Assembly (NCBI GenBank): GCA_043732485.1
Contig: JAYTHP010000150.1
Coordinates: 1 to 30,287 of the forward strand
Origin: Oligoflexia bacterium
Lineage (GTDB): Bacteria > Bdellovibrionota > UBA1018
Direction of reading: 5' to 3'
Length of the DNA: 30,287 nt
A program made the translations under genes and the position numbers. Below the pieces are notes generated by a model that made no database searches, had not been told where the DNA came from, and saw nothing but the letters and a program-made list of their open reading frames with translations. This document shows positions 326 to 23,512 of this stretch, in pieces. Each line of letters begins with the position of its first letter. Position 1 is the first letter of the stretch.

Positions 326-3300
326 CTACGAAAACAGGGCTCTTAAGTACAAGAAGATTGCCAGCGGCTGTTGTGAGGCTTCGCGAGGCACCGGGGCGAG
401 TAAAACGACGCGCCCGTCGGCGAGCACTTGAAAAGGAGTCCTTTTGGCGCTGAGGTTGGCGTGCAGTGGCTGGTGCTGGTCCGGTTGCGGCAAAAGCAGC
501 AGTTTCACGGGCGTGTCTGGGCGGTGGTTGGGGAGTGACGGCGTGGGTGCGGGCGGGAGGCTTGGGGGCTGCGGCCTTGAGGTGAGCGCGTGCGTGGTCG
601 AGCCGCTTCGTTTGCGCAAAGTCGGTTGCGGGGGGAGCGAGATTGCCGGGCTTGGAGGCGCGCTTTCGCTGGCTTTAGGTTGCAAGTTGATCTTCAGTTT
701 CAGGATTTTCTGGTTGCGCAGCAGGATTTTAAGGCGCATGAGCATCAGGAGCTGTTTGGCTTCAAGCGGCAAGGCACCGAAGCGATCGGCGAGCTCTGCT
801 TCCAGCTCCAGGATCTCAGCGTCGTCCGTCATGACGGAAAGCCTACGGTAAAGCGCGAGTCGTTGGTGAACTGGCGGGATGTAGTCTTCGCCTAAGTAGG
901 CTGCAAAAGGAAAATGAATGTCAGGCTCGTTTTTGAGTGCCGCTGAGCGTGGGTGGGCGCCTGCGGATCCTGCGGGTAAGGACGAAGACGACTGGTCTAG
1001 CCCCTGCATGGCCTCTTCCAGCAGTTCCAGGTAGAGATCAAAGCCGACGGAGGCAATATTTCCTGATTGTTTTGATCCGATAATGTCGCCGCCACCGCGG
1101 GCTTCCAGGTCGTGGAGGGCGATTTGAAAGCCGCTGCCGAGTTCGACGTTTTTTTGTAAGGTGTTGAGGCGCAAGAGCGCGTCTTCGCTCACTTCGGTTT
1201 CTTCGGGGATCAGGAGGTAAGCCACGGCCCGCTCTGTGCTGCGGCCCACGCGTCCTCGGATCTGGTAGAGTTGTGATAAGCCTAAAAGGTCGGCGCGGTT
1301 GACGAGCAGGGTATTGGCGTTAGGAACGTCAAGGCCTGACTCAATAATCGTGGTGCATAACAGCACTTGGATTTCGTGGGCGTGAAACGCTAGCATTTGT
1401 TTTTCTAACAAGGCGCTGGGCATTTGTCCGTGGGCCGCGGCAAAGCGCACGTGAGGCATCAGGGCTTGCAGTTGCTCTAAGCAAGGCAGCAGGGTCTCAA
1501 TCCTAGGGTGCAGGAAGTAGACTTGGCCGCCACGTTGTATTTCAAATTCAATGGCTTTTTCGATCAGCGGGAGACTGAATTGCGCGAGATAGGTGCGAAT
1601 GGGTAGGCGGTTTTTGGGGGGGGTGCGCAGCAGACTCATCTCGCGTAACCCGCCTAGGGTCATGTGTAAGGTTCTGGGGATAGGAGTAGCCGACAGCGCC
1701 AAGGCGTGGGTGTTAGTCTTGAGGGTTTTGAGTTTCTCTTTGTGACGCACGCCAAAGCGATGCTCCTCGTCCACCACGATCAGCCCTAGGTTTTGAAACT
1801 GGATGTCGTTGGAGAGCAGGCGATGGGTGCCAATGATCAAGTCAATTTTGCCTTGCGCTAGCTCCTGGAGGATGGTTTTTTGTTGGGCTGCACTTTTAAA
1901 GCGGGAAACGGAGCGAATGAGGATGGGAAAAGCGCGAAAGCGCGCTTGAAATGCCACCTCGTGTTGTTGCGCCAGTAAGGTGGTGGGGGCAAGCAGCGCC
2001 ACTTGGTAGCCGCTTGCAATCACCTGAAAGGCCGCCCGCATGGCGATTTCCGTTTTCCCAAACCCCACGTCGCCGCAAATCAGGCGGTCCATGGGTTGAC
2101 CGGATTGGAGATCGCTTTCAATGGCCTCAAGCGCGCTCAGTTGGTCGGGGGTTTCGCTAAAGGGAAAGTGCGAGATGAAGTCAGAAAAATCCGCTCCCGG
2201 TGGCGCAACACTGAGCCCTTTTTGCTTTTTGCGCTGAGCATAGAGCTGGACCAGCTCGAAGGCGAGCGTCTCGGTATCTTCGCGCACTTGCTGCAAGGTT
2301 TTTTGAAACTTCGGGCTGCCGAGCAGATCAAGCGGCGGGTGAGCCTCCGGACCGAGGTATTTTTGGAGCCAGGCGAGTTTATCGACTGGCACATAGAGTC
2401 GATCGGCACCCGCGTATTCGAGCGTGACAAAATCGCTGGGAGCGCCCGATAAGGTGAGTCGACTTAACCCCTGATAGCGCCCTAAACCGTAATCGCGGTG
2501 AATCAGGGAGTCACCCACCTGAAACTCACCAAGCAGCGGCTGCTTCTTAGGAGAGGGCGAGGGGCGGGCTTTTTTGGGTCCGCTGCCGAGCCCCTTGATC
2601 CGCCCCTCGCTTAAGTTCAAGACCATCAGCTGTTCTTGCTCCCAGTAAAACCCCCCGCTCAAGCGGCCAGGCACGAGGTAAAGACCGGGGAGTTGGCTTG
2701 CAAACGAGCTTTGCACCGCGCAGCCTAAAGCGGCCAGTTCGGCGCGCACCTCCTCAGCTTGAGTGGCTGTTGCGACCACCCCGAGCATGCGGGTCCCCTG
2801 TTTTTGATGGCGCAAAAGCCAGCGACTGAATTGCTCAAGCGATTGGTGGCGGGCCGTGGGGTCCTCCCAGGTCTCTTGCGGGGTTTTCATGGGCAAAAAA
2901 ATCAAAGCTGGCTTGCTCCCTGCCGCGGGGGTCATTTCGGTGAGCTGCAAAAGATCAAAAAACAAATCAGCCGTGGCGCCGCCGCCCTGAGGTTCCGCTC
3001 CTTGCTTTGACCGTGCCATTAGCCTCTCGGGCGGTAAAAAGAGTGCTTCAGGCGGAGGCAGTAGACGGTAGGAGGTGGGGGTGTGAGGGGCGCTAGGGGA
3101 GGGTTTAAGGAGCGCATTATTTTCTGCAATCTGAGCGTCAAAAAACTGCTGCCAGTGCTTCAGGCAATGGGCCTGCTCGTTCCAGACCCAGGAGGTGGGG
3201 TGTGCCAGGTAATCGCACAAGGTGCTGGTGGCGTTCGTGAGGCCATCGTCCAGGCTATCGTTTGGCGTGGCAAAGCAAAAAGGAGCCCAAAGCAACGCGT

Positions 3301-4165
3301 CGGGGAGAAACTGACCGCGTTGGGCTGCTTGCAGGGTGCTTTCAAGCTTACGCAGCGGCCATTTGAGTTCCAAAGCGCGATTTTTCAGTTGGGTCAGCAG
3401 CGGACGTCGATGCTGGGCCTGGAAGAGCACCTCGTAGGCGGGAGGAACCCGCAATGTTTGGGGAGAGGTGGGGGTTGCGTCACCCGGGGCACGCGCCTGC
3501 CTGGTGGAAACTTGGGTGTCTGGATGAAAAAAGCTGATGCGGCTGATCTCACCGTCTTCTCCGAGTTCCAAGCGAGTCGGTAGGCTTGCGTCGCTAGGAA
3601 AAAGATCAATAATCTCGCCGCGCAGCGAAAAGGTGCCTGGATCTTCCACTAAGTCGCACTCCAGGTAGCCGCGCTCGGTGAGGCTGCTTGCCAGGGTGCC
3701 GTAAGCGGGTTGATCGCCTAAGCGAAAATGGAGCAGCGCCTCGCAAAACGCCTGCGGCGGCAAGATCACCTGGCTGATGGCAGGCAAAGTGCTGATCACC
3801 AACTCAAGGCGGCTGATGGGGGTGGTGGTGGTGGAGTTTTGGGTGAGTCGGGAGAGCGTTTTTAAGCGCTCAAAGCGCACCTGGGGGCTGGCTTTCACGC
3901 TGCTATAGAGCGAATGATCCCAGTGGGGGAAAAAAGCAAAGCGCTCCTCGTGGCGGGAGGAAGAGGACGAAGAGGAGCTGGGCTTGAGCGCCGCTGCCAG
4001 CGTGAGCAGGCACTCGAACAGCTCGCGGGCTTGCTCCTCATCAGGGCACAGCACCAGTGCAGGGAGCTGGGGGAAGGCATTTTGGGCGAGGGCTTGCAGC
4101 AAGATCCAGGCGCGAGCGGAAAGCGGAGCGCCTGCAAACCGAGTGGGCAGTGAGAGTGAATTCAT
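326..4165 (-). CDS. mfd: Transcription-repair coupling factor Mfd
   Basis: 1279 aa. UvrB-like N-terminal region (FSLRGEIIDLFP), CarD/TRCF RID domain (HRDYGLGRYQG...LYVPV), Walker A GDVGFGKT, DEEH, SATPIPRT, QIRGRVGR, TRG motif DLEARGGG, C-terminal RLALYRRL...ELADRFG. Confidence 0.97.
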   Translation of the reverse strand: MNSLSLPTRFAGAPLSARAWILLQALAQNAFPQLPALVLCPDEEQARELFECLLTLAAALKPSSSSSSSSRHEERFAFFPHWDHSLYSSVKASPQVRFERLKTLSRLTQNSTTTTPISRLELVISTLPAISQVILPPQAFCEALLHFRLGDQPAYGTLASSLTERGYLECDLVEDPGTFSLRGEIIDLFPSDASLPTRLELGEDGEISRISFFHPDTQVSTRQARAPGDATPTSPQTLRVPPAYEVLFQAQHRRPLLTQLKNRALELKWPLRKLESTLQAAQRGQFLPDALLWAPFCFATPNDSLDDGLTNATSTLCDYLAHPTSWVWNEQAHCLKHWQQFFDAQIAENNALLKPSPSAPHTPTSYRLLPPPEALFLPPERLMARSKQGAEPQGGGATADLFFDLLQLTEMTPAAGSKPALIFLPMKTPQETWEDPTARHQSLEQFSRWLLRHQKQGTRMLGVVATATQAEEVRAELAALGCAVQSSFASQLPGLYLVPGRLSGGFYWEQEQLMVLNLSEGRIKGLGSGPKKARPSPSPKKQPLLGEFQVGDSLIHRDYGLGRYQGLSRLTLSGAPSDFVTLEYAGADRLYVPVDKLAWLQKYLGPEAHPPLDLLGSPKFQKTLQQVREDTETLAFELVQLYAQRKKQKGLSVAPPGADFSDFISHFPFSETPDQLSALEAIESDLQSGQPMDRLICGDVGFGKTEIAMRAAFQVIASGYQVALLAPTTLLAQQHEVAFQARFRAFPILIRSVSRFKSAAQQKTILQELAQGKIDLIIGTHRLLSNDIQFQNLGLIVVDEEHRFGVRHKEKLKTLKTNTHALALSATPIPRTLHMTLGGLREMSLLRTPPKNRLPIRTYLAQFSLPLIEKAIEFEIQRGGQVYFLHPRIETLLPCLEQLQALMPHVRFAAAHGQMPSALLEKQMLAFHAHEIQVLLCTTIIESGLDVPNANTLLVNRADLLGLSQLYQIRGRVGRSTERAVAYLLIPEETEVSEDALLRLNTLQKNVELGSGFQIALHDLEARGGGDIIGSKQSGNIASVGFDLYLELLEEAMQGLDQSSSSLPAGSAGAHPRSAALKNEPDIHFPFAAYLGEDYIPPVHQRLALYRRLSVMTDDAEILELEAELADRFGALPLEAKQLLMLMRLKILLRNQKILKLKINLQPKASESAPPSPAISLPPQPTLRKRSGSTTHALTSRPQPPSLPPAPTPSLPNHRPDTPVKLLLLPQPDQHQPLHANLSAKRTPFQVLADGRVVLLAPVPREASQQPLAIFLYLRALFS

Positions 4166-4286: not shown

Positions 4287-4742
4287 ATGCCTATGCTGAC
4301 TAATAAATGGGATTCCTACTCAATTGTCTTCCTCTCGGCGCTGCTCGCGTTGTTCATTCCCATTTTTTTAGCCTTCTTGTCCTGGTTGCTTTCGCTAACG
4401 CATCAAAAACGAGCGGTTAGTCCAAGTCCTAAGGCAGTGCACAAGGGGGTTCCCAAAAGCGCTCCCGTCAGTGCCGTGCCTTCGTTGATTCTGCTGGGTG
4501 GCCGCATTCACGTGCGTTTTTTTCTGGCGACCAATGCCGCACTGATTTTAATCACGCTCAGTCTTTTGCTGATCCCCTTTGTCACGGTGGTGGACGGAGG
4601 GGGAGCCGGGGGGGCGGCGGTGGATTGGACGAGCGGAGTGGGTGTAGGCGGGGTCCCCAATCGTTTGTTAGGTATTTTGAGTGTGGCTTTGTTTGCGGCG
4701 TTAGGTTTGCTCTATTCGATTCACAAAGAAGACATGGGTTAA
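4287..4742 (+). CDS. nuoA: Divergent NuoA-like membrane subunit (set 1)
   Basis: 151 aa, three hydrophobic segments, first gene before nuoB. RFFL...LIPF and LGLLYSIHKE echo NuoA KFYLVA...LYP and GYLY..K, but the ECG and FDVE motifs are absent. Confidence 0.7.
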   Translation: MPMLTNKWDSYSIVFLSALLALFIPIFLAFLSWLLSLTHQKRAVSPSPKAVHKGVPKSAPVSAVPSLILLGGRIHVRFFLATNAALILITLSLLLIPFVTVVDGGGAGGAAVDWTSGVGVGGVPNRLLGILSVALFAALGLLYSIHKEDMG

Positions 4743-4775
4743 TGACTTCGAACTTCGGTGCTTTGGGTTAAAATC

Positions 4776-5243
4776 ATGGGATCTTTTTACTTAGCCACTT
4801 TAGGTCAACTCGTCAAATGGGCGCGCTCCCGTTCCTTATGGTATGTCACCACTGGGTCAGGCTGTTGCGGCGACGAGGTGCTCAATGCCATGGGCTGTCG
4901 CTATGACCTGGAGCGCTTTGGTTGTTTGCCGCAAGTCGATCCGCGGCAAGCCGATTTGCTGATCGTGTGTGGGATGGTTTCCTACAAGGCGATGCCTTAT
5001 TTGCTCGATTTTTATGATAAAATGCTTTCTCCTAAGTATGTCTTAGCGGTAGGTTCTTGTGCCAGCTCAGGAGGGCCGTTTTCTCCGGATCTGAGTTACT
5101 CGGTGGTGCCGGGGGTGAACGCGGTGATTCCGGTGGATGTTTACGTGCCCGGATGTCCCCCTCGGCCGGAGGCGGTCATGAATGGTTTGATTGCCTTGCA
5201 GGAGAAAATTTGTGGACAACGATCCGCTACGTTTGAAAATTGA
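4776..5243 (+). CDS. nuoB: NuoB-like Fe-S (N2) subunit (set 1)
   Basis: GCC.DE, YDLERFG, PRQADLLIV, GSCASSGG, VDVYVPGCPPRPEA. ATG at 4776 preferred; the ORF is open from GTG 4758. Confidence 0.95.
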   Translation: MGSFYLATLGQLVKWARSRSLWYVTTGSGCCGDEVLNAMGCRYDLERFGCLPQVDPRQADLLIVCGMVSYKAMPYLLDFYDKMLSPKYVLAVGSCASSGGPFSPDLSYSVVPGVNAVIPVDVYVPGCPPRPEAVMNGLIALQEKICGQRSATFEN

Positions 5244-5733
5244 GCAGGCTTTTCCCGGGGTGCTCCTCGAGGGACGCCCTTTTGGCAAGTCCGATTGGCC
5301 TTCTCCTCTCTGGATTGCTTCTCACGCCTTAGCCGGGGTAGCGAAGTTGCTGAAGCAGGATCCCTCCGCGCCGTTGACTTTTTTAGAGAACTTGTCGGTA
5401 GTGGAGTTGGAGCAGGGGCTGATTGCCTCGTATTTTCTCAGTACGCGGGATTTTAAGAAAAAAGCGATGATTCGCTTCACCCTAGCGCTCGACCCGCTGG
5501 TGCCGCTGGTGATTCCTTCTGTCAAGCAGGTCTGGCCGATGGCCAAGCCGATGGAGCAAGAAATCAGTGAGCTGTTTGGCATTCAATTTGTGCTGCCCAA
5601 CGGGCAAAAAGTGGCTCATAGTGGCGGTCTCTTGGCGCCGGATTGGGCGGGCTATCCCCTGCGCAAGGCTTATAGCTTTCCCAGTCAATTTCAGGGGGTG
5701 ACTCATGCCAGAAATGGGGTGTCGCGTGGGTAA
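5212..5733 (+). CDS. nuoC: NuoC-like subunit (set 1)
   Basis: IPSVKQVWPMAKPMEQEISELFGIQF and DWAGYPLRK match NuoC (W..A.W.ERE..D.FG; GHPLRK). In-frame GTG at 5212 has GGAG upstream at 5201-5204. Confidence 0.88.
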   Translation: MDNDPLRLKIEQAFPGVLLEGRPFGKSDWPSPLWIASHALAGVAKLLKQDPSAPLTFLENLSVVELEQGLIASYFLSTRDFKKKAMIRFTLALDPLVPLVIPSVKQVWPMAKPMEQEISELFGIQFVLPNGQKVAHSGGLLAPDWAGYPLRKAYSFPSQFQGVTHARNGVSRG

Positions 5734-5739
5734 AAGCGC

Positions 5740-6888
5740 ATGAGGATGGACTGGATTGAGAACAAAAGTTTACTGACGCTCTGGGAGATGGGTCCTTATC
5801 ACAGTGCGTTGCCCGGTCCGATGCGGCTGCGTTTGTGGCTAGACGGCGAGTGGATTGCTGGTAGTGAGGTGGAGCACGGTTTTTTGCACCGAGGGTTAGA
5901 AAAGTGTCTAGAGTTGCATTCCTGGCGCGAGGCGTTGGCGTATGTCGATCATCTCGATCCTGAGGCGGCCATTTTTGGTGAGCTCGTTTTTTGCCTGGCA
6001 GTGGAAGAAATCCTGGGGGTGGAAGTGCCCGAGCGGGCGCAATTTATTCGCATGATTGTGGCTGAGCTCAGTCGCATTAGCTCGCATTTGCTCTTCATGG
6101 TGCGCATTGCCCAAGCGGTTGGCTCCGAAACGATCGTCCATTATCTGCTGCGCGACCGTGAAAAGATCCTTGATTTGTTTGAGCTCTTGACCGGGGCGCG
6201 TTTTTCCCATCACTTTTTGCGCTTTGGGGGGGTGGCCTATGACATGTCGGATGGTTTTATTGAGCGGGTGCTGGAGGTCTGTGATCTGATTCAAATTCGG
6301 ATGAAAGAGTACAACGATTTGTTCACCTATAACAATATTTTCGTGAAACGCAGCGCCAACATTGGGGTGTTAACGGCAGCGCAAGCTTTTGCAGCAGGCG
6401 TCACTGGTCCCAATGCGAGGGCCTGCGGGGTGGACGTCGATTTACGGCGGGAGTGTCCTTATTTGCGCTATCAGGATTTAGACTTTAATCCTGCAGTGGG
6501 GGCCGGAGAGGTGGGCAGTTTGGGGGACGTGCATGATCGCTTTTTGGTGCGGTTGCGGGAAATGGAACAAAGCATCCATTTGCTGAGGCAAGCGGTGCGG
6601 CAGGTGCCAGCCGGGGCGTTTTCCGAACCACACCGCGGGGACAGCGCCAGTTTGTTTGATTTTACCGTGGCGCCTGGTGAGGCTTATGCCCGGATTGAGA
6701 GCGCCCGCGGCTTGTTGGGCTGTCACGTGGTTTCCGACGGCAAGGAGCGTCCGTGCCGGGTGCAGTTTCGCGTGCCGACCCAGGGTCATTTATTAGTCTT
6801 ACCGGAACTACTCCAAGGCGCGAGGATTGAAGATTTATCGGTGATCCTTGCGAGTCTGGATCTGGGAATGGCGGAGGCGGACCGATGA
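5740..6888 (+). CDS. nuoD: NuoD-like subunit lacking quinone-site residues (set 1)
   Basis: MGPYH, LDGE, GFLHRGLEK, ELSRISSHL, RFGGV, C-terminal ASLDLGMAEADR. No NiFe CxxC motifs. Confidence 0.93.
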   Translation: MRMDWIENKSLLTLWEMGPYHSALPGPMRLRLWLDGEWIAGSEVEHGFLHRGLEKCLELHSWREALAYVDHLDPEAAIFGELVFCLAVEEILGVEVPERAQFIRMIVAELSRISSHLLFMVRIAQAVGSETIVHYLLRDREKILDLFELLTGARFSHHFLRFGGVAYDMSDGFIERVLEVCDLIQIRMKEYNDLFTYNNIFVKRSANIGVLTAAQAFAAGVTGPNARACGVDVDLRRECPYLRYQDLDFNPAVGAGEVGSLGDVHDRFLVRLREMEQSIHLLRQAVRQVPAGAFSEPHRGDSASLFDFTVAPGEAYARIESARGLLGCHVVSDGKERPCRVQFRVPTQGHLLVLPELLQGARIEDLSVILASLDLGMAEADR

Positions 6889-8054
6889 TCGGGTCAAGGT
6901 TCGGTTTGGCACTCCTGAGCACGGCAGCTGCGGCCACCCCGGGGTTAAGCGCCGACCCGGTGGCGGCCACCACGACAACAACGCCTGTGGCCAGTGCGTG
7001 GATCCATTACTGGATTCAGCCGCATGATGTGGGCCTCCCCTCGTGGTTTCTCTTCATCTTGACCTTAATCTTGATCTATCTGACGGTCTTGATTCCGGCT
7101 GCAGGGCTGATGATGTATCTTGATCGCAGGTTAGGCGCAGTTTTTCAAGCGCGCATCGGACCGCAGCGGGTCGGGCTGCAGGGGTTGTTGCAGCCCTTAG
7201 CCGATTTTTTAAAGTTATTACAAAAAGAGCTCTTGCAGCAAAAAAGCTGGCAAGAGAGCTTTTGGTTGGGGCTGTATACCATGGCCTTGTACTCGGTGCT
7301 TGCGGTCTTGCCGCTCGGCTCGCTGGCGCTGATGGTGGATACCGAGATGAGCGCTTTTTTGCCTTTCTGGGCGGCTTTGGTGTTTGCCTTAGGGACGATG
7401 CTCTTGGGCTTGAATCAGGGGTCGGTGCCAGGCTGGCTGGGCGGTATTCGGGTGGCAGCCCAGACTTTGGCGGGGGCTTTTCCGGCGCTCATCTCGCTGG
7501 TGTGTGCCGGGGTCAATGCCGGTAGTTTCCGCTGGAGTGTGCTTGCGGGCGCGCAGCGGGTGACGCCGTGGAGTTGGACGGCGCTCAGCAATCCGTTTCA
7601 ATTTAGTGCCTTTGTGGTGTTCATGATGAGTGGCTTGGTCCTGCTTGCGATTCCGCCGCTTGATGGCGGGTTGTCAGGCCCGGAGATGCAAGGTGGGATT
7701 TCTTCCTCGCTGTTTGGTCGGAATTTAAGTCTGTTTCACTTTGGCAGGTTTTTTGGCTTCTTCTTTTGGTCGATCATCACGGTGGTGCTGTTTTTAGGGG
7801 CGTGGGCCTTGCCTGAGTCCTTGCGTGATTTTCTGATGGACAGTGAGTCCTATCGCTCCTTGATTTTACTGGAGTTAGGCTGCGTGCTGGTTAAAAGTTT
7901 GTCGCTGATGGTCTTGGTGATTTGGGTTGCCAGGGTCAATCCCCGCAGTCGAGTCGACCAGATTACCGATTTTGCCTGGACGGTGCTGAGTCCTTTTGCG
8001 CTGATGAGCCTAGTGGGTGTGACGCTTTATGCCGGATGGAAGGCGCACGGATGA
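6885..8054 (+). CDS. nuoH: NuoH-like membrane subunit (set 1)
   Basis: QARIGPQRVG..GLLQPLADFLKLLQKE and PRSRVDQ. ATGA overlap with the nuoD stop. Confidence 0.92.
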   Translation: MIGSRFGLALLSTAAAATPGLSADPVAATTTTTPVASAWIHYWIQPHDVGLPSWFLFILTLILIYLTVLIPAAGLMMYLDRRLGAVFQARIGPQRVGLQGLLQPLADFLKLLQKELLQQKSWQESFWLGLYTMALYSVLAVLPLGSLALMVDTEMSAFLPFWAALVFALGTMLLGLNQGSVPGWLGGIRVAAQTLAGAFPALISLVCAGVNAGSFRWSVLAGAQRVTPWSWTALSNPFQFSAFVVFMMSGLVLLAIPPLDGGLSGPEMQGGISSSLFGRNLSLFHFGRFFGFFFWSIITVVLFLGAWALPESLRDFLMDSESYRSLILLELGCVLVKSLSLMVLVIWVARVNPRSRVDQITDFAWTVLSPFALMSLVGVTLYAGWKAHG

Positions 8055-8587
8055 GGTATTCCTTTATTTCCCAGTTTTTAATTTACCTCTGGGGGGTTTT
8101 TCAAGGGGCGCGTTCACTGGGGCAAGCCTGCTGGGTGGCGGTGCCTTATATTTTTCGCTGGGGGGAGCTCAAGCGAGAGGTGACAGATGGTTATCCCGAT
8201 CCGGTGTCTTCGCGCACGGCGGATGATTTGCCGCAACGCAGCCGGGGCTTTTTGTTCAATGAAATTGATCGCTGTACCGGATGCCGCGAGTGCGAGCGGG
8301 TGTGTCCGACCCACTGTATTAGCATTGAAGAAGAACCAGGGGCTGATGTCTCAAAAACCTGGATTTCGGTGTTTGACATTGATTTTGCGCGTTGCATGTT
8401 TTGTGGGCTTTGTGTTGAGATCTGTCAGCCGGCCTCGCTCAATCACACCAAGCAGTATGAGGGGGCAGCCTTTCAGTTACCCGATCTGGTGGCCAGTTTT
8501 GGTCGCGGGGTGGTAACCGAGGAGCAGCGGAAGAAGTGGGCCGTGATGCGGGAAGAGCAAGTCAATGATGAGGATGATTTCTTGTGA
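8051..8587 (+). CDS. nuoI: NuoI-like 2x[4Fe-4S] subunit (set 1)
   Basis: VTDGYP, RG, CTGCRECERVCP, FDIDFARCMFCGLCVEIC. Start at ATG 8051 (ATGA overlap with the nuoH stop) rather than 7922. Confidence 0.93.
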   Translation: MRYSFISQFLIYLWGVFQGARSLGQACWVAVPYIFRWGELKREVTDGYPDPVSSRTADDLPQRSRGFLFNEIDRCTGCRECERVCPTHCISIEEEPGADVSKTWISVFDIDFARCMFCGLCVEICQPASLNHTKQYEGAAFQLPDLVASFGRGVVTEEQRKKWAVMREEQVNDEDDFL

Positions 8588-9120
8588 TTAGCGCTTTGTT
8601 CGGTTTAATTGCCATTCTGGCAGCCTTTATTGCCACCTTTGAGCAGCAGATGCGGCGGGCGGTGCTGGCCTTATGGTTGTGTGGGATTGCCACGGGCTCC
8701 TTGTATTTGAGTCTCGGGGTAGAGTTTTTAGCCATTATCCAGTGGATTCTCTCCACCCTGGTGGCCATTTCTTTTATCCTGTTTGCCGTTATGTTTGGGG
8801 AATTTCAAACGGCAGGCGTGGAGGAGCGGGGGGAGCAAAAAAACCGGCTCCTTTTGCACCTGATTTTGGCGCTTGCGGTGGGTTTTGGCTTTTTGCTGAC
8901 CCTGGGGCTGGGGATGCAAGGGTTTTTGGAGCGTCCGTTGCCGCATAGCAGCGAATGGGGCGACTTGGCGGAGATTGGCAAAATGCTCTCTGCGCATTTG
9001 CTGGCGGTGGAGGTTTTAATCATTTTGCTCTTCTTGACGCTGGTGGGAGGCGGGGTGATTGCGCGTGGGCCTGTTGGGGGCGGTGGTCAAGCAGGAGAGA
9101 GGAAGGAGGACCTGCGGTGA
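8584..9120 (+). CDS. nuoJ: NuoJ-like membrane subunit (set 1)
   Basis: LYLSLGVEFLAIIQ...FAVMF and IGKML..HLLAVEV..ILL follow the NuoJ layout. GTGA overlap, located between nuoI and nuoK. Confidence 0.85.
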   Translation: MISALFGLIAILAAFIATFEQQMRRAVLALWLCGIATGSLYLSLGVEFLAIIQWILSTLVAISFILFAVMFGEFQTAGVEERGEQKNRLLLHLILALAVGFGFLLTLGLGMQGFLERPLPHSSEWGDLAEIGKMLSAHLLAVEVLIILLFLTLVGGGVIARGPVGGGGQAGERKEDLR

Positions 9121-9407
9121 TTTTGCTGGTTCCTATTCTTTTAGGGAGTCTCGGGCTGGTGTCGCTGTTTTCGCGCACCAGTATGATGGGAATTCTGATT
9201 GGCGTGCAGTTATTGATCCTTGGCACCTCGCAGATGTTCATCCTCACGGGGATGATTGCAGGCGAGCTTGCCAAAGGTGGGCTTTTAGGGTTTTGTATCG
9301 TCTTAGGTGGGGTGGCCCAGCTGGTGGTGGGTTACACCCTGAGTTTACGCTTGTTTCATTTGAAGCAATGCGTAAATCTCAGTGAAATACAGGAGCTGAA
9401 GAAATGA
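9117..9407 (+). CDS. nuoK: NuoK-like membrane subunit (set 1)
   Basis: 96 aa, three TM helices from GTG 9117 (GTGA overlap, AAGGAGGA SD). Aligns to NuoK with Gln at both conserved Glu positions. Confidence 0.82.
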   Translation: MILLVPILLGSLGLVSLFSRTSMMGILIGVQLLILGTSQMFILTGMIAGELAKGGLLGFCIVLGGVAQLVVGYTLSLRLFHLKQCVNLSEIQELKK

Positions 9408-11416
9408 CCCCTCAACTGATCGCCCTCTCCGACGACACCGGCGCGGTCCTACCTATGACCTCTTCTTGGTTGATGCTGGCTATTTTTTTTTTAGTGGCCT
9501 GTGGTCTCGTTGTGTTTGCCTCGGGGAAGAAGCTACCGCTGCGAGGTCTTTGGCTGTTGTGGTTGGCTTTAGTGCTGGTGGTGGCAGGCTCCGGGATGGA
9601 TTCGGGGCTATTTTTTGGTTTACCGAGCGTGACGAAAGCTTGGCTCGGGGAATGGATTTTGCCGCATGAGGAGTTAGGTGCGGTTAGTTTTGGGATCATT
9701 CATGACAAAATGAGCGAGGTGATGAGCGTACTCGTGGCGCTGATCACTGGGCTCTTGCTGCTGAAACACCCCAAATGGGCGCAAGCGGAGCACGCTTATA
9801 AAATTTACTCAGGCCTGGCGTTCTCAACAGCAGGGGTGATTTTAGCCTGGAATTCACTCACGCTGTGGATTGGCTTTGTGGGGGGAATTTTAACGCTGCT
9901 GGGCGGGGCGATTGCCCTGAGTTGCTCGGCTTGGCCCAGTGAGCAGAAGGATCTCACTTTACAGTTTATTTGGGAAAAAAGTGCGGGGTTTTTCTTTGCC
10001 TTTCTAGGAGCAGCGGTGCTGGCGGGTTCTAGGCCTGGGCTTTTTCTAACCCAAGCCTCGTCGTTGCCAATTTCTGAGGGCAACAGCAGCTTGCAGCCGC
10101 ATGCGACGGTCGCCTGGGTCGGCTCAAGCCTACTGGTTTTGGGTTTATTTTCGCAAGCGCAATCGTTCCCTTACTTAGGTTGGATGAACTATCAGTACTC
10201 CTTGTACTTGCCTGTCAGGGTCTTGCTCAGTCAGATTTTTCCCTTCTGGGCGGCTTTTGCCTTATTCTTGCGCTTCCAGCCGCAGCTGGTCACCTTGGGT
10301 TTTTTGCCGCCACTCAGTTGGTTTGCTCTTGGTTCAAGCCTGCTCACCTTAATTTCGGGGTTTTGCCAGCACTCCTGGCAACAGTCCTTTGGCGCTTTGC
10401 TCTCAGCCGGGTTTGCCCTCGTATTTGCGATCCTTGCTTCCGGTCAGCCGACCTCAGCTGGGCTGAGTTTGTTTTTGGGGATCAGCTTGGGTGGTTTGAC
10501 CTTTTTGCTGGCAGGCGAGGCGTTAGACGGCAGTCTTGAGGTGGCCGAAGCGGAGACGAAGTCGAGTCATCAGCGCACTAGCCTTTTTTTGAAGTTGGCT
10601 TGTGGCTTAGGCGTGGCTGCGATGACAGGGTTTTTCGGGTTCGTCTCAGCGCAAGGCGGCTTGGATTGGGTGGGGATGAAGGTGCATCAGCCGATTCAAA
10701 AAGTCTTCGTGCTCTTGGTTTTCTTTTTGTTCGTGGTGCTCGCGTGGCGTATTTTCTTTCAAATCAAACGGCTGCGCGCTCAGTCGCCTGCCCGTTTGTT
10801 GACTTTTGTCGCGCTGTTCATTTTACTGCTCCTCTCCAGCGGGCTGCTGTGGAGTGGCAGTCTCTCGGGAGGCGTTTTACTCAACCATCCTGATCAACTT
10901 TTTTCCCTCGGTCTGCACTCGCTCCTGGCGGGGCGCGCGGAGTGGAACGACTTTGATGATTACTTGTCGGCGTCGGGGCTCTACTGGGGGGTGATGTTGC
11001 TGGCTTTTTTAACCGCAGGGTGGACGTCCTCGGTGGCAGCTGAGAAGTGGGGGCGGGCCAACTCGTTTTTCCCCAAAGCCCGGCAATTCTTAAAGTCGGG
11101 CTACCAGATTCAGGAACTTTACGCCTGGGCGATGAAGGCTTTAATTGTGATGGGTCTCAGGTTAGAGTTTGTGGTTAGTACCAAGATCTGGGATCAGGGA
11201 ATGTCGCGTGGGTTATGGTTTTGTGTGAGTTCGGTGGCAAGCTCGGTGCAGCAGATCGATCAGTGGGTTTTTGAGTGTTTGGAGCTGCCGCTGGTCAAGG
11301 GGGTAGATCTTTCCTCCAAGCTGCTGCAGCTGATTCAAACGGGCGACGTGAGGTGGTATTTACTGTTCGGCCTCGGCGTGGGGTTTGGGTTACTGGCGCA
11401 TTTTTTAACGATTTGA
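9404..11416 (+). CDS. nuoL: Highly divergent NuoL-like antiporter-fold subunit (set 1)
   Basis: 670 aa multi-TM protein between nuoK and nuoM, with NuoL-type C-terminus LQLIQTGDVRWYLLF and W...FG..HD.MS N-terminal pattern. Core charged motifs are absent. Confidence 0.8.
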   Translation: MTPQLIALSDDTGAVLPMTSSWLMLAIFFLVACGLVVFASGKKLPLRGLWLLWLALVLVVAGSGMDSGLFFGLPSVTKAWLGEWILPHEELGAVSFGIIHDKMSEVMSVLVALITGLLLLKHPKWAQAEHAYKIYSGLAFSTAGVILAWNSLTLWIGFVGGILTLLGGAIALSCSAWPSEQKDLTLQFIWEKSAGFFFAFLGAAVLAGSRPGLFLTQASSLPISEGNSSLQPHATVAWVGSSLLVLGLFSQAQSFPYLGWMNYQYSLYLPVRVLLSQIFPFWAAFALFLRFQPQLVTLGFLPPLSWFALGSSLLTLISGFCQHSWQQSFGALLSAGFALVFAILASGQPTSAGLSLFLGISLGGLTFLLAGEALDGSLEVAEAETKSSHQRTSLFLKLACGLGVAAMTGFFGFVSAQGGLDWVGMKVHQPIQKVFVLLVFFLFVVLAWRIFFQIKRLRAQSPARLLTFVALFILLLLSSGLLWSGSLSGGVLLNHPDQLFSLGLHSLLAGRAEWNDFDDYLSASGLYWGVMLLAFLTAGWTSSVAAEKWGRANSFFPKARQFLKSGYQIQELYAWAMKALIVMGLRLEFVVSTKIWDQGMSRGLWFCVSSVASSVQQIDQWVFECLELPLVKGVDLSSKLLQLIQTGDVRWYLLFGLGVGFGLLAHFLTI

Positions 11417-11508: not shown

Positions 11509-11526
11509 TAAAGGACAAGACGTTTC

Positions 11527-13032: not shown

Positions 13033-13183
13033 GATCTCATGACACTTTTGCAAACTCGCTGGATCACCCTGAGCATGACTGATACCCCACTGGGCCTAGA
13101 GGTAGGGGGGGGTATACCTTGAGGCGGGGTGACGCGCGCCTGGAACAACCGACCCCTTACTTTTTTTTCGCTGGTTTTTGCTT

Positions 13184-14659
13184 ATGAATGACGTCAGCTA
13201 TCTACTCCCCGAATTGGTCTTAGCGTTAACGCTTGCGGCAGTACTGTTAGGCGAGATCACCTATGTCGGTGAGCGGCTCAGGCTGGTCACCGCGGCCTCG
13301 ATTGTCGGGTTGCTGGTGGCGTTCCTTGAGACGATTTTTTCCTATCAGTATCCTGCCGGCTTGATCTTTGGTGGGGCACTGTCGTTTGATGGTTTTTCAT
13401 TGTTTTTTAAGCTGATTTTTATCCTGCTGGCCTTTTTTTCTATCATCTACATGAGCCGGACCCAGGAAATTGAGGTCGCACGCCGGGCGGAGTTTTGTTC
13501 CTTGATCCTGGCGGCAACGCTTGCCATGTGCCTGGTGGCCTCGGCCTCGGATGCCTTATTGATTTTCCTGAGCGTGCTGTTTTTAAATGTGATTTGCACT
13601 TTTTTGCTCGCCTTTGGGCGGGATTCTTGTGACTCGGTGGAAGCGGCGATTAAGTATTTTTGTTTTAGTGCCGTAGCAAGCGCGCTGCTGCTTTATGCGC
13701 TAGCCATCTTGTTTGGCACCACACGCTCACTCAATCTTTATGAGATGCACAAGGTGCTGGCCGTTACTCCGCTGGCACATTCAGCCAATTTGGTAGTTTT
13801 TGGCCTTATTTTTCTCGCGCTAGCCTTCCAGGTCGGCTCTTTTCCGATGTCGCTAGTGCTACCTGATGTCATCGAAGGCGCACCCACTCCAGTCTCGGCG
13901 TTCGTCAGTGTCGGTTCAAGGGCAGCCGGATTTGCCTTGATGATTCGAACCTTAATTGCGTTGTTTGCGCAAGCTGGGCCTGCCGATTCCTACCAGTGGC
14001 AAGTCATGGGGGATTTTGATTGGACCGTGATGCTTGAGATTGTCTCAGGGATCACTATGCTCTCGGGCGCTTTGCTCTCGGTGCGGCAAAAACGCGCCAA
14101 ACGGCTGATTGGTTGCCTGATTCTCGTAGAAACCGGCTATTTGTGGATGGGGGTTCTGGTGCTTGATCAAGTGGGGATTGCTGCCCTGCTTTATAACCTG
14201 GTGCTTGGGCTTTTTGCGCTGGTAGGCAGCTTTTTTGTGGTTTCACGCTTTTACCAGGAGTTCAAATCCGATCATCTCTCAGAGATGCGCGGCATGCTGC
14301 AGCGGGCGGTGCCCGAGTCGGTGTGTCTCATCTTGTTTCTGTTGTGCTTAACCGGCAGCGCCCCGACCCCAGGGTTTATTGGTAAATTTACCCTGATTGG
14401 CATTGCCGTGCAGCATCAAAAACTGATTCTTGCAGCCGTGGCCGTGCTTGCAAGCTTTATTTCGACTTTGTCGGTGGCGCGACTGACTTTTTACCTGATT
14501 GGCGATTTTAAGCAGATGGCAGGGGTGCCTAAGCTGAAGGTGACGCGAGGCGACCAGGTGTTTTTAGCGGCTCTCATGGTCCCACTCATTCTGCTTGGAC
14601 TGTTTTCTGATTGGGTGTTTGCGCTAGCCAATCGTAGTTTAGGGTTTATTTTCTGGTAG
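13184..14659 (+). CDS. nuoN: NuoN-like antiporter-fold subunit (set 1)
   Basis: LLPEL, EAAIKYF, PDVIEGAPTPVSAF, PTPGFIGKF. ATG 13184; ORF open from TTG 13178. Confidence 0.92.
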   Translation: MNDVSYLLPELVLALTLAAVLLGEITYVGERLRLVTAASIVGLLVAFLETIFSYQYPAGLIFGGALSFDGFSLFFKLIFILLAFFSIIYMSRTQEIEVARRAEFCSLILAATLAMCLVASASDALLIFLSVLFLNVICTFLLAFGRDSCDSVEAAIKYFCFSAVASALLLYALAILFGTTRSLNLYEMHKVLAVTPLAHSANLVVFGLIFLALAFQVGSFPMSLVLPDVIEGAPTPVSAFVSVGSRAAGFALMIRTLIALFAQAGPADSYQWQVMGDFDWTVMLEIVSGITMLSGALLSVRQKRAKRLIGCLILVETGYLWMGVLVLDQVGIAALLYNLVLGLFALVGSFFVVSRFYQEFKSDHLSEMRGMLQRAVPESVCLILFLLCLTGSAPTPGFIGKFTLIGIAVQHQKLILAAVAVLASFISTLSVARLTFYLIGDFKQMAGVPKLKVTRGDQVFLAALMVPLILLGLFSDWVFALANRSLGFIFW

Positions 14660-14698: not shown

Positions 14699-15061
14699 AT
14701 GATGGCCTACCTCCCTGTTTTACTAATGATGATGATTGGAGCGATCGTAGGTGGGGTTGTGTTGGCATTGACCACCTTTTTAGGACGAGGCACCCCGCAC
14801 CCGCGTAAGAACATGCCTTTTGAGTGCGGCGTACCCTCGGTGGGCGACACCCATCATCCATTTTCGGTAAAGTTTTACCTGGTGGCCATTCTTTTTTTAC
14901 TGTTTGATGTCGGGGCGGTGTTTTTGTACCCGCTGGCGCTGGTTTTTCGGCGATACCTGGCGGTCAATCGCTTCATCCTACTAGAAATGGCGCTCTTTTT
15001 AACCGTATTTTGCTTAGGCTACCTCTACGTGCGCTCAAAAGAGGCTTTAGACTGGGAGTGA
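14699..15061 (+). CDS. nuoA: NADH:quinone oxidoreductase subunit A (set 2)
   Basis: KNMPFECG, FSVKFYLVAILFLLFDV, ALDWE. Confidence 0.96.
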   Translation: MMAYLPVLLMMMIGAIVGGVVLALTTFLGRGTPHPRKNMPFECGVPSVGDTHHPFSVKFYLVAILFLLFDVGAVFLYPLALVFRRYLAVNRFILLEMALFLTVFCLGYLYVRSKEALDWE

Positions 15062-15085
15062 AAAGATTGTAATGGGTCAAGACTA

Positions 15086-15586
15086 ATGGGAAAAGACGGC
15101 TTTTTTGAATTTTTTACCACGCGCTTGGAAACCCTGGTGAGTTGGGGACAAAAAAACTCGCTTTGGCCTCTGCCCTTTGGCACTAGTTGTTGTGGCATTG
15201 AGATGATGGCCACCCTTTGCTCGGATTACGACATGTCGCGGTTCGGGGCGGAGGTGGTGCGCTTTTCTCCTCGACAAAGTGACTTGTTGATTGTAGCAGG
15301 GGTGATTAGCTTGAAGATGGCGCCGGTGTTAAAGACGGTTTACGACCAGATGAGTGATCCCAAGTTTGTGATGTCGTTTGGGGCTTGTGCCTCCTCGGGT
15401 GGTATTTTCAAGGTTTATAGTGTTTTGCAAGGCATTGATACCATGATTCCCGTGGATATTTACGTCCCGGGTTGCCCACCCGCTCCGGAAGGGGTTTTGC
15501 ATGCGCTGTTGCAGTTGCAAGAGCAGGTGGCGCGCGGCGTGACGCACTCGCAGCGTAGAATAGCAGGAATTGCTTATGGATCTTAG
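15086..15586 (+). CDS. nuoB: NADH:quinone oxidoreductase subunit B (set 2)
   Basis: [37 protein letters not shown]. Confidence 0.97.
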
Positions 15587-16160
15587 AAGCTTAGGTGGGC
15601 ACGGCGTGGCTGAGCAGGCGGCAAAGTGCGCGGAACGCTGGGCGCAGCAAGTGGCACTCCTTAAGACGCGCTTTAGTGTAGACGAATTGCTGGAGGTGGA
15701 GTCTTTGCCTGTCCAGGCAACCGATGTGCTCAGCCTCCGGGTGGTCAAAGAGTGCTTACTTAAGCTGATGCAGGTACTCAAAACGGAAGCTTTGTTTGAG
15801 TACGCGGTGTTGTCTGATCTCACGGCTGTTGATCACCTGCCTGAGGTCCCCCGCTTTGAGGTGATTTATCACTTACTTTCCTTGAGTCAAAAGATGCGCA
15901 TGCGCGTCAGAGTGCGGGTAGGCGAGGGAGACAGTGTGCCGACTTTAAGTGGGATGTGGCCTGGGGCCAATTGGCTGGAGCGTGAGGTTTACGACATGTT
16001 TGGTGTGCCGTTTGCCGAGCATCCCGATTTACGGCGGATTTTGATGGATACGCGCTGGGTCGGGCACCCGCTGCGTAAGGATTATCCTCTCGCAGGCTTC
16101 CAGGTTTTCACAGAGCCGCTCCCTGGCGATCCGGGATTGCTGCAAGGTGAGCATGAGTAA
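15576..16160 (+). CDS. nuoC: NADH:quinone oxidoreductase subunit C (set 2)
   Basis: [38 protein letters not shown]. Confidence 0.96.
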
Positions 16161-17403
16161 GGCGATAGCGCCAGAGGGCGCTCACGGCGGGTTGCCTGCT
16201 AGCTTTACGCTGAGCTCCGACCCGGATGAGTTATGGGGTGAGGCGCGGACGATTGTCAATATTGGCCCCACCCACCCGGCGATGCACGGAGCGCTGCGCA
16301 TGACGGCGAAATTGAACGGTGAGACGATTGAGAAGTCCTACTGCGAGTTTGGTTACACCCACCGCGCGAAAGAGAAGTTGGGGGAGAATCGCACCTACCA
16401 TAATTTTATCGTCTACACGGATCGCTTGAACTATTGCTCGGCTTTGGCCAACAACGTCGGGTACGTGCTGGCGGTTGAGAAGTTGCTGGGGATCGGGGTG
16501 CCTGAGCGCTGTCAGTGGATTCGCATGATTTGCTGTGAGTTGTCGCGCATCATGGATCACTTGATTTGTATTGGCATTAATGCGGTTGATTTAGGGGCTT
16601 TTTCCTACTTTTTGTATGGTTTTCATCAGCGGGAGGAGGCCTACACCTTAGTGGAGCAGTTGTGTGGCGCGAGATTGACCACCTCTTATCCGCGAGTAGG
16701 GGGCTTGGCGCACGACGCTCCCGAGGGTTTTGAAGCGGCCTTGAAGAAGTGGGTGCTTGAGACCAGGCGGGTGGTAGAAGAGATGGACGCCTTGCTGACG
16801 GATAACCGCATTTGGCGGCTTCGGACGGAAGGGGTGGGGGTCATCTCCAAGGAGCAGTGTTTAGCCTACGCGGTGAGTGGTCCGGTTGCCAGGGCTTCGG
16901 GAGTGGATTGGGATTTAAGGCGCGATGAGCCGTATTTGAATTACAAGCAAGTGGAGTTTGAAGTGCCGATTGCCCAGCACGGTGACGTGCTAGATCGTTA
17001 CTTGGTCAGGCTGGAAGAGATTCGCCAGTCGCTCAGAATCCTAAGCCAGTGTGCTGAACGGATGAAAAAGGGGCCGATCTGGATTGAAGATAAGCGGGTG
17101 CGGATTCCTGAGAAAAGCGCTGTGCATAATACGATGGAAGGGATGATCCATCATTTTAAGTTCTTTATGGAAGGTTTTTCGGTGCCAGCAGGCGAAGTTT
17201 ACTCGACGACGGAGGCTACCAACGGCGAGCTCGGGTTTTACATTGTCAGTCGCGGCGGTCCACGAGCGCATCGCATGCGGATTCGTGGGCCTTCGGTGTT
17301 CCATTATCAGATTTTAAGTCCGGTGGTGGAAGGCGAGAAGCTGGCTGATATGGTGGCAACGCTGGGGAGTTTAAATATCATTGCAGGCGAGCTGGATCGG
17401 TAA
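16153..17403 (+). CDS. nuoD: NADH:quinone oxidoreductase subunit D (set 2)
   Basis: NIGPTHPAMHGALR, YTDRLNY, AVDLGA, GSLNIIAGELDR; quinone-site triad intact. Confidence 0.97.
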   Translation: MSKAIAPEGAHGGLPASFTLSSDPDELWGEARTIVNIGPTHPAMHGALRMTAKLNGETIEKSYCEFGYTHRAKEKLGENRTYHNFIVYTDRLNYCSALANNVGYVLAVEKLLGIGVPERCQWIRMICCELSRIMDHLICIGINAVDLGAFSYFLYGFHQREEAYTLVEQLCGARLTTSYPRVGGLAHDAPEGFEAALKKWVLETRRVVEEMDALLTDNRIWRLRTEGVGVISKEQCLAYAVSGPVARASGVDWDLRRDEPYLNYKQVEFEVPIAQHGDVLDRYLVRLEEIRQSLRILSQCAERMKKGPIWIEDKRVRIPEKSAVHNTMEGMIHHFKFFMEGFSVPAGEVYSTTEATNGELGFYIVSRGGPRAHRMRIRGPSVFHYQILSPVVEGEKLADMVATLGSLNIIAGELDR

Positions 17404-17599
17404 GGGGTATTAGTCAGACTTTTGTTCAGGCGTAAGAGAAAAAAAGGGGTGCCTGAAGACGGCAGGGAATTGTGGGTGAAGGACGCAGCGAGGGCAAAGG
17501 TAAAGTGGTGAGGGTGTGTGTGAGTGTCGGTATGAGTGTGTTTCTGGAGAGCCCTCCTGGCAAGAATGAACAGGCAGTGAGTAGAGCAAAAAAAAGATC

Positions 17600-18079
17600 A
17601 TGAGCAAAAAAATTCTATCTTCCAGCTTTTATCAGCAGATTGCACTGCTTAAGCCCCGCTACCCTACGCTCAAGGCGTTGATGTTACCGTGTTTGCATGC
17701 CGCGCAAGCCGAGCAGGGAGGGTGGCTACAGCAAGCGGTTTTAGATGAGATTGCTGAGCTACTGAAGCTGCATCCAGCGGAAGTGCGCGAGGTGGCCTCC
17801 TTTTACTCGATGATTGCGCTTGCCCCGGTGGCGCGCTATCAGATTAAGATTTGCACCAACGTGGCTTGCGCCCTGCGGGGGGCTGATCAGTTGATGCAGC
17901 AGTGTCAAAGCCAACTGGGCATTGAGTGTGGAGAGATGACCGACGATCAGAAGTTCTCGCTTGCAGAAGAGGAGTGCTTAGGGTCGTGCGGCACGGCGCC
18001 TGTGATGATGCTGAACCAAGAACACTATGAAAAAGTCGACGCGGCAGCGCTGCAGGGATTTTTAGAAGGGTTAGAGTGA
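17600..18079 (+). CDS. nuoE: NADH:quinone oxidoreductase subunit E
   Basis: EVASFYSM, CTNVAC and ECLGSCGTAP ([2Fe-2S] N1a ligands). Confidence 0.96.
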   Translation: MSKKILSSSFYQQIALLKPRYPTLKALMLPCLHAAQAEQGGWLQQAVLDEIAELLKLHPAEVREVASFYSMIALAPVARYQIKICTNVACALRGADQLMQQCQSQLGIECGEMTDDQKFSLAEEECLGSCGTAPVMMLNQEHYEKVDAAALQGFLEGLE

Positions 18080-18083
18080 ACAC

Positions 18084-22074: not shown

Positions 22075-22080
22075 ACGCAT

Positions 22081-22530
22081 ATGATTGTTCACCGCCGAAA
22101 AAGTCGTCTCTCACAGTTTTACCTGATTGAAATCGTTCGGGGTTTAAGCATCACGCTAAAAAACCTCCTTTTTTCCCGCAAAGTCACGGTGCAGTATCCG
22201 GAAGTGCGACGCAAGTATTCCGAGCGATTTCGCGGTTTGCATTACCTAAAGGCCACCAACGGGGTGGAGAACTGCACGGCTTGCATGCTGTGTCCGACCG
22301 TTTGTCCGGCAGAGTGTATTCATATTGAGGCAGGCGAGCGTGCGGATAAGGAGAAATACCCGGTGCGCTTTGAAATTGACCTACTGCGGTGTTGCTTTTG
22401 CGGGATGTGTGAGGAAGCGTGCCCGAAGGATGCAATCAAGTTGAGTACGCTCTATGAGATGAGCACGACCCATCGACAAGTCTTAAGCAAAGAGTTTTTA
22501 CTCGAACAACGAGGGAGTCGCACGTCATGA
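22081..22530 (+). CDS. nuoI: NADH:quinone oxidoreductase subunit I (set 2)
   Basis: VTVQYPE, RFRGLH, CTACMLCPTVCP, RCCFCGMCEEACP. Confidence 0.97.
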   Translation: MIVHRRKSRLSQFYLIEIVRGLSITLKNLLFSRKVTVQYPEVRRKYSERFRGLHYLKATNGVENCTACMLCPTVCPAECIHIEAGERADKEKYPVRFEIDLLRCCFCGMCEEACPKDAIKLSTLYEMSTTHRQVLSKEFLLEQRGSRTS

Positions 22531-23483: not shown

Positions 23484-23512
23484 TGGCTGTGTGATGAGGA
23501 GGCGGTGATATC

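Follow-up and report, generated by a model that had tools for sequence, protein, structure and literature searches.

We analysed a 30,287-nucleotide stretch of DNA from an Oligoflexia bacterium (hereafter the window) and found that it carries, upstream of a complete nuoA-N operon, an 11-gene nuo paralogue that is intact and, throughout a class of uncultured bacteria, under strong purifying selection. The proton-pump and quinone-site residues of complex I are gone from its proteins, the Fe-S ligands are kept, and the paralogue complex is, judging from these residues, very probably non-pumping. Our preferred reading, to which we give a probability of about 0.45, is that the 11 proteins would form a non-pumping shell that supports the canonical complex I structurally, as its partner or scaffold.

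Because coupling depends on residues such as NuoK E36/E72 and NuoJ Y59, these are regarded as invariant, and a whole machine kept by selection without them would mean that complex I has a second, non-pumping use, to which thousands of codons are devoted. If true, an entire respiratory machine would have become a pseudoenzyme, with living lineages recording the order in which coupling was dismantled. The lineages with partial losses form a natural mutant series for asking whether redox chemistry can be uncoupled from pumping; in NuoM, no uncoupling mutant was found (PMC9802314, excerpt). There is also a risk for annotation, as the stripped genes would count as a second working NADH dehydrogenase. 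A full-text literature search (most subscription papers lay outside its reach) found no description of the degenerate operon, and neither Bdellovibrio nor Oligoflexia is named in the searched text of PMC12361115.

Organization of the locus

The window contains, in order, a mfd-like gene on the minus strand, the 11-gene paralogue (4287-14659, gene order nuoA1 B1 C1 D1 H1 I1 J1 K1 L1 M1 N1) and the complete nuoA-N operon (14699-29049). Residues lost or kept are given in E. coli numbering, unless stated otherwise.

326..4165, minus strand: mfd-like helicase gene (named from its translation), divergent from nuoA1; it marks a conserved chromosomal site
4287..4742, plus strand: nuoA1, degenerate; D79, E81, E102 and the K46/E51 loop latch lost
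4758..5243, plus strand: nuoB1; four N2 cysteines kept; an ATG at 4776 may be the true start
5191..5733, plus strand: nuoC1; true start probably a few codons downstream
5740..6888, plus strand: nuoD1; NuoD fold, short form without E. coli CD 499-515
6885..8054, plus strand: nuoH1; E157, E216, E218 and E228 lost, E241 replaced by Arg
8051..8587, plus strand: nuoI1; all eight N6a/N6b cysteines kept, conserved insert after YP
8584..9120, plus strand: nuoJ1; TM3 IQWILSTLVAI (8737-8769) at the site of the Tyr59/Gly61 pi-bulge motif
9117..9407, plus strand: nuoK1; Gln31 (9207-9209) and Gln68 (9318-9320) at E. coli E36 and E72
9404..11416, plus strand: nuoL1; full-length NuoL fold including the lateral helix and the last TM helix
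11527..13032, plus strand: nuoM1; E144 and H348 lost, K234 to Arg, K265 to Pro, H322 to Glu, E407 to His
13178..14659, plus strand: nuoN1; E133 to Leu (Gln in most relatives), K217 to Gln, K247 to Arg, H305 to Glu, K395 kept
14699..29049, plus strand: canonical 14-gene nuoA-N operon, starting 39 bases after nuoN1

Homologues of NuoA, B, C, D, H, I, J, K, L, M and N are all present in operon order, all frames of the 11-gene set are open, and D/H, H/I, I/J, J/K and K/L each overlap by four bases (GTGA, GTGA and ATGA for the overlaps of nuoJ1 and nuoK1 with their neighbours). The paralogue and the canonical operon are likely on one transcript; promoter and terminator scans gave counts at chance level (5 vs 6.5 and 33 vs 26.6), and an Rfam scan of the window gave no match. 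The cluster has no nuoE, nuoF or nuoG of its own, and the only matches to these genes in the genome are on the contig of the window. The gap between nuoL1 and nuoM1 (11416-11527) is 110 bases, as compared to about 10 in most relatives, and contains an A+T-rich hairpin of 11 pairs along with three direct repeats, all short.

The paralogue proteins are 21-47% identical to their adjoining canonical counterparts (21% for NuoK1 vs NuoK2). By Pfam, nuoJ1 matches Oxidored_q3 and nuoK1 matches Oxidored_q2 with a score below the cut-off; nuoA1 has no Pfam match and was assigned from its position, BLAST to homologues and alignment. NuoL1 had no match in the Pfam/NCBIfam scan, and its profile failed against the single NuoL2 sequence, so its identity comes from fold search and profile-profile comparison: the predicted model (pLDDT 82.5) retrieves NdhF/NuoL by Foldseek (E 4e-14, TM-score about 0.67-0.71), and hhalign gives 99.9% as NuoL over 589 columns. 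The model of NuoD1 (pLDDT 91.1) has the NuoD fold, with a TM-score of about 0.92.

Two paralogue proteins carry further lineage-specific conserved motifs that are candidate new binding surfaces, namely the YPDPxSSRTxDDLP insert and FGRG tail of NuoI1 (8051-8587), and Tyr29/Gly31/Glu32/Arg35 after the first helix of NuoN1 (13178-13290).

Replacement of the NuoK glutamates and the NuoJ pi-bulge motif

A preliminary description of this DNA had claimed that both conserved glutamates of NuoK1 are Gln and that NuoJ1 has lost its TM3 motif, and both claims were borne out. NuoK1 contains IGVQLLI and GGVAQLVVG where the canonical NuoK2 of the same window, the source of the strings used for comparison, has MSLELML and LAAAESAVG. 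Gln31 and Gln68, each encoded by CAG, align with E36 and E72, as placed by alignment to E. coli NuoK (NC_000913.3) and by HMMER alignments to PDB NuoK/Nqo11/NdhE chains. In NuoJ1, IQWILSTLVAI stands in place of the IQILVYAGAIL of NuoJ2, with Tyr59 replaced by Ser and Gly61 by Leu.

The same description proposed to look for conservation of both Gln in homologous operons. Among 53 paralogue rows, which were picked via J1/K1 matches and therefore over-represent the home family, Q occupies position 36 in 47 rows (N 3, H 2, V 1) and position 72 in 42 rows (L 5, plus A, Y, V and I), with Glu at neither. The Gln codons are CAG or CAA in 35 and 12 rows at position 36, and in 29 and 13 at position 72. 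Canonical NuoK copies have E at these positions in 25/25 and 24/25. At NuoJ position 59, the paralogues have S in 38/54, A in 9/54 and Tyr in none. In a wider set of 110 NuoK matches (a 50%-identity representative library searched at E<=1e-10, where 8 of the 110 are canonical E/E, and from which the top match P0018, an unrelated repeat protein, was excluded), position 36 is Q in 68, H in 19, E in 10 and Y in 6, both Gln occur together in only 34, and one clade-like member has E36 with Q72. Among the deep-branching loci, where NuoK was usable in 16 of 19, Q36 is found in 6/16 and neither Glu is found in any of the 16. Gln at these sites is hence preferred but not required: what is constant is the loss of both NuoK glutamates, with Gln as a common but not the sole solution.

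The preliminary description read the two charge-removing changes as selection that keeps shape while abolishing protonation, and not as random decay. The first half of this reading agrees with the folds and subunit interfaces, which are kept, and decay is contradicted by the dN/dS values given below. Strict selection against protonation at position 36 is not supported, because His, which occurs there, is protonatable. Absence of a need for a proton carrier, combined with selection for a polar residue of similar size, fits the Gln data equally well, and Glu to Gln is one base change. Isosteric changes (E to Q, K to Q, K to R) occur side by side with substitution by hydrophobic residues in NuoA, H, L and M, and with the loss of the quinone site; the NuoJ/K changes are a small part of a complex-wide loss.

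Proton-pump residues across the membrane arm

We tabulated residues (E. coli numbering) in the paralogues, the canonical copies and 12 intact sister clusters. The proton relay of complex I runs from H E157 to A D79, K E36/E72, N E133/K217, M E144/K234 and L E144/K229 (PMC13324432 and PMC10212512, excerpts), and every station is replaced in the paralogue but kept in the canonical copies and the 12 intact sister clusters (where NuoA D79 is D in 11 and E in 1). The paralogue lacks the E-channel carboxylates (H E157, A D79, K E36/E72) and the NuoJ Tyr59 pi-bulge motif, the TM3 pi-bulge being a gate (PMC7613608, excerpt). NuoA D79/E81 are hydrophobic in the paralogues; in NuoH, E241 is Arg in 49/55 and E157, E216, E218 and E228 are lost. 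The loop latch of NuoA K46/E51 with NuoH E71/K140, named in a passage of PMC10212512, is lost on both sides.

The TM5 Glu and the TM7/TM8/TM12 Lys (or Glu/His) of NuoL, M and N are likewise missing, and only N K395 and M H241 are widely retained. In NuoN paralogues (n=47), E133 is replaced by Q (32) or L (14), K217 by Q (31) and K247 by R (35). In NuoM paralogues, E144 is A/G/S, K234 is R (47/49), K265 is P (45/49) and E407 is H (25). NuoL paralogues have lost E144, H254, K342, K399 and K229 (Q in 23/32), and in NuoL1 itself the losses are E144, D178, K229, H254, H334, H338, K342, K399 and D400. Some buried charges are kept in the family (NuoM R234 in 47/49 and H241 in 41/49; NuoN R247 in 35/47, E/Q305 in 40/47 and K/R395 in 44/47). 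In Paracoccus NuoM, a single E to Q or K to Q change abolishes activity, and E141Q and E405Q unfold like wild type (excerpts of PMC9802314).

Four deep loci keep parts of the pump, yet are without the NuoK glutamates; one of them (L158) retains M E144, K265, H322 and H348, and N E133 and K217. With the order of losses read from such presence patterns, this suggests a stepwise loss in which the coupling junction, and NuoK with it, was cut early.

The canonical operon of the window has peculiarities of its own: its NuoA has Gly at E81 (14912-14914; E in 34/36), its NuoM (25587-27368) has Tyr at H248 (H in 20/21), and its H+M+N branch is long (0.87 vs about 0.3).

Selection on the paralogue

Between-genera dN/dS is saturated, and ten within-genus pairs were used in its place. 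In the two unsaturated pairs, dN/dS is 0.052 and 0.071 for the paralogue vs 0.043 and 0.058 for the canonical operon (K1 0.00-0.01 and J1 0.03-0.13); the other eight pairs have dS >1 or undefined, and dN/dS of 0.06-0.31 where computable. M1 and N1 have values of 0.02-0.05. Neither frame breaks nor dN/dS near 1, as expected of a pseudogene, were found. Across 21 genomes, protein identity is lower in the paralogue than in the canonical complex for every subunit; measured against the canonical copies, M, N and B are the least relaxed (identity in paralogue/canonical 0.51/0.65, 0.46/0.58 and 0.59/0.70, respectively), and K, L and I the most.

Quinone site, Fe-S ligands and electron donor

NuoD residues are given in Thermus numbering. 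The quinone triad His38/Tyr87/Asp139 is missing from NuoD1 (Pro25, Pro74 and Ala126), in which Thr135 is Arg122 and Phe147 is His134. Among the 65 loci with both B and D, His38 and Asp139 are found in none, and position 87 is Tyr in 9 and Phe in 1; in most members it is Pro. Thr135 is Arg in 42/70 and Phe147 is His in 59/70 paralogues, and both positions line the quinone chamber in Thermus (PMC4758237, excerpt). NuoB1 has Asp39 in place of the hydrophobic residue after CC-x (E. coli V66), and R87 is Gln. At the V66 position, 53/55 loci without Tyr/Phe87 have D/N/S/E and 10/10 loci with it have a hydrophobic residue. Kin are not independent, and the co-occurrence of Arg and Asp may go back to one inherited event. 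We take the NuoB residue two after the CC pair to be a quinone-pocket residue, as in Yarrowia work, and NuoD Arg122 and NuoB Asp39 may plug the head-group site as an Arg-Asp pair.

The cysteine ligands of N2, N6a and N6b are kept: the eight of NuoI in 44/44 and the four of NuoB in 37-39/39 paralogues. Both NuoI motifs are found in 18/19 deep loci (the exception is split into two ORFs), and one deep-lineage NuoB row matched only one of three patterns. NuoB E67, D77, D94 and Y114 are also kept. The two CxxC pairs of the NiFe large subunit, by which group 4 [NiFe]-hydrogenases (Ech, MBH, FHL) are recognized (excerpt of PMC3144371), are found neither in NuoD1 nor in the paralogue alignments.

As to a possible electron donor, a POR (2-oxoacid:ferredoxin oxidoreductase) domain was found in 19/80 class genomes, and not in this 89%-complete genome. 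All four POR-positive genomes checked (L171-L174) have a third, 11-gene complex I beside POR and keep the stripped copy too. This POR-linked complex I has NuoD His38/Tyr87/Asp139, both NuoK Glu and the L/N pump residues; its NuoM K234 is aligned to Leu/Ile. The E. coli CD 499-515 segment, which presumably faces the N-module, is missing from NuoD1 and from the intact sister isoform alike. Of the parts facing the N-module, PMC3144371 (excerpt) names only the NuoC tail.

Comparison with known systems

By homology, the paralogue belongs to the complex I superfamily (A1 resting on position and alignment, L1 also on fold) and can be classed as an 11-subunit complex I that lacks the catalytic hallmarks of that family. 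It shares with the canonical 14-subunit complex I (E. coli NuoA-N, Thermus Nqo1-14) the NuoD/NuoL folds and the N2, N6a and N6b ligands, but is without the NADH module and has its catalytic residues replaced. NUO11 enzymes (cyanobacterial NDH-1, PDB 6hum/6khj; PMC3144371, excerpt) have the same 11 genes in the same order, no N-module genes and no NiFe cysteines, and NdhH is the top sequence match of NuoD1 and NdhF the top fold match of NuoL1; unlike the paralogue, they keep the E-channel, central-axis and quinone residues. Like the paralogue, the second complex I of other Bdellovibrionota sits at the mfd site and has the short form of NuoD, a Gly-rich insert and an 'LFND' pattern in NuoI, but it keeps the pumping residues (12/12 at nearly every site) and His38/Tyr87/Asp139 (5/5), and its BCDI genes are located elsewhere.

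Archaeal Fpo and the Sulfolobus/Nautiliales Nuo are also without His38/Asp139, and Sulfolobus is without Tyr87 too; the portion of PMC4758237 that covers them describes quinone-site changes and no wholesale loss of membrane-arm proton paths. In the Mrp antiporter and MBH/MBS, the J/K/L/N folds are homologous, and the NuoK glutamates and the NuoJ tyrosine are replaced as in the paralogue. Unlike the paralogue, Mrp uses MrpC His37/His40 and MrpA Glu706 and retains the antiporter Glu/Lys pairs (PMC7419157, excerpt), and NuoK1 matches NuoK (E 1e-13) better than it matches MrpC (E 0.31). Of the Mrp markers (MrpC His37/His40, MrpA Glu706, MrpD Glu137, MrpE/F/G), the paralogue shows none, although His is found at NuoK position 36 in the 19 wider matches given above.

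Possible functions of the paralogue complex

Under the structural-partner reading, the 11 paralogue proteins would assemble into a proton-tight, non-pumping L-shaped shell. The neutral polar residues of NuoJ/K would keep the helix packing at the J-K-N junction and offer no proton relay, Ser/Leu in NuoJ TM3 would remove the rotating gate, and the quinone pocket would be filled by NuoD Arg122 and NuoB Asp39. The Fe-S clusters would be retained mainly for folding, and the shell would serve the adjoining canonical complex as structural partner or scaffold. We favour this reading because selection acts on the distal membrane subunits, because the membrane genes persist (downstream of nuoI, even the smallest version of the cluster retains five membrane ORFs) and because most members seem to have a filled quinone pocket. 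Extended to the class, it would describe a catalytically dead twin of ~3,700 residues, co-transcribed as a structural partner, which would have lost the NuoK glutamates and His38/Asp139, then the distal pumps and Tyr87, and then gained the Arg-Asp plug; we put this wider form at slightly worse than even odds. With Tyr/Phe87 surviving in ten deep loci and part of the pump residues in four, the whole class may not have a single shared function. A fixed docking geometry is also hard to square with the shrunken membrane subunits and lack of nuoC in one family and the extra NuoM-like gene in two others, described below.

The best conserved part in the most divergent lineages is B, D and I, which, like the retention of NuoB E67, D77, D94 and Y114, fits electron transfer as well as a structural role. 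An uncoupled electron conduit or redox sensor, in which electrons from a soluble donor would travel via N6a-N6b-N2 to quinone or a different acceptor, bulk water supplying the protons and the membrane arm serving only as a sealed anchor, is the alternative to be weighed most seriously, though we consider it rather unlikely, at about one chance in four. It draws on the near-universal NuoI and NuoB cysteines, although even a catalytically dead enzyme would be expected to retain its structural cysteine ligands. The NuoA loop latch is lost on both sides, and an opened cavity decouples pumping from quinone reduction (PMC7613608, excerpt). Mutation of Tyr87 leaves short quinones active, and in Fpo, Tyr87 is present while His38/Asp139 are not, the same pattern as in the deep lineages (excerpts of PMC4758237 for short quinones and Fpo); the conduit fits these Tyr87-keeping lineages best. 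The new conserved His134, together with Asp39 near N2, could make a new polar site. In most members, however, Tyr87 is Pro, Thr135 is Arg and NuoH E241 is Arg, POR was not found in 61/80 class genomes and the POR-positive ones have a separate NUO11 with catalytic residues, and the strong selection on M1 and N1 is left unexplained. That the degenerate subunits are regulatory spare parts, which would dampen or stop pumping by exchanging into the canonical complex or by tying up its subunits, seems improbable: the two sets share a predicted transcript and NuoH1 retains the arm-junction residues R37, R46, D63, K70 and R148, but the paralogues are distant from their neighbours and of a different lineage, and they persist as a complete, matching set of 11, which is what one would expect if they formed a separate complex. 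Still less probable is a rewired transporter moving Na+, K+ or a solute via the J/K Gln/Ser sites and the new Arg/Glu/His set of M and N. The conserved buried charges (M R234 and H241; N R247, E/Q305 and K/R395) would suit it, yet this polar set is mostly gone in deep lineages, the operon contains no MrpE/F/G-like gene, and Mrp needs MrpA E706 (at the Tyr59 position), MrpD E137 and MrpC H37/H40 (PMC7419157, excerpt), where the paralogue has mostly Ser and Gln. Neutral decay of a redundant duplicate would account for the lower identity in every subunit and for the dN/dS of up to 0.31 in one saturated pair, but it is very improbable in view of the near-canonical dN/dS of the unsaturated pairs, the open frames and the persistence of second NuoD-like genes across the class.

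Distribution and origin

The NuoJ1 search gave a match in 43/61 relatives, and 89/96 genomes of the class have at least two NuoD-like genes. The cluster lies between mfd and the canonical operon in 19/19 divergent class genomes, chosen for a second NuoD-like copy that scored weakly or was expected from position (a 20th region, with a 100-base placeholder, was excluded). The gap between nuoN1 and nuoA2 has a median of 34 bases over 47 loci, a few of which are duplicates. When the NuoK1 profile was searched against 401 phylum genomes, the strongest matches (E below 1e-20) were only within the order.

Other Bdellovibrionota classes have an intact nuoAHJKLMN cluster (PMC13147790, in excerpts without residue analysis). 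We found this cluster divergent from mfd in 9/12 cases (mfd was not seen in the remaining three stretches), and a separate nuoBCDI cluster with His38/Tyr87/Asp139 in 5/5 sister genomes searched. In a quick LG+G4 tree of H+M+N, in which the paralogue branches are long, the paralogue and the sister clusters group with 100% SH-aLRT, apart from the neighbouring canonical operon. From the shared mfd site and this grouping, the paralogue most likely represents the old 11-subunit isoform of this phylum after it had been stripped in a single class. For NuoD, neither a grouping with the sister isoform (p 0.07) nor one with the main lineage (p 0.06) was rejected. A recent tandem duplication of the adjoining operon was rejected for NuoD (AU p 2e-7).

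Several variants of the cluster were observed. Six loci of two families (L151-L155 and L169; f13 and f14) have an extra membrane gene of 450-490 residues between nuoL and nuoM (e.g. L151:6988-8466, minus strand) that in profile comparison matches NuoM1 best (hhalign 98%, E 1e-14), giving a two-NuoM layout in a pump-dead complex. Family f10 (L164-L167; e.g. L164:9425-15814) has a minimised version of ~6 kb in which nuoC was not found; the ORFs at the L/M/N positions have ~300-480 residues, none of the three scanned matched Proton_antipo_M, and the NuoB and NuoI cysteines are intact. The genome of the window contains a further NuoL-like gene elsewhere (G000:C250:15470-16333; 34% to NuoL2). Finally, family f22 has a stand-alone degenerate nuoB-CD-I trio with no membrane genes nearby (L133:9904-12411 and L134:9158-11576); its NuoD branches from the main lineage with long branches, and the trio is apparently an independent second degeneration within the phylum.
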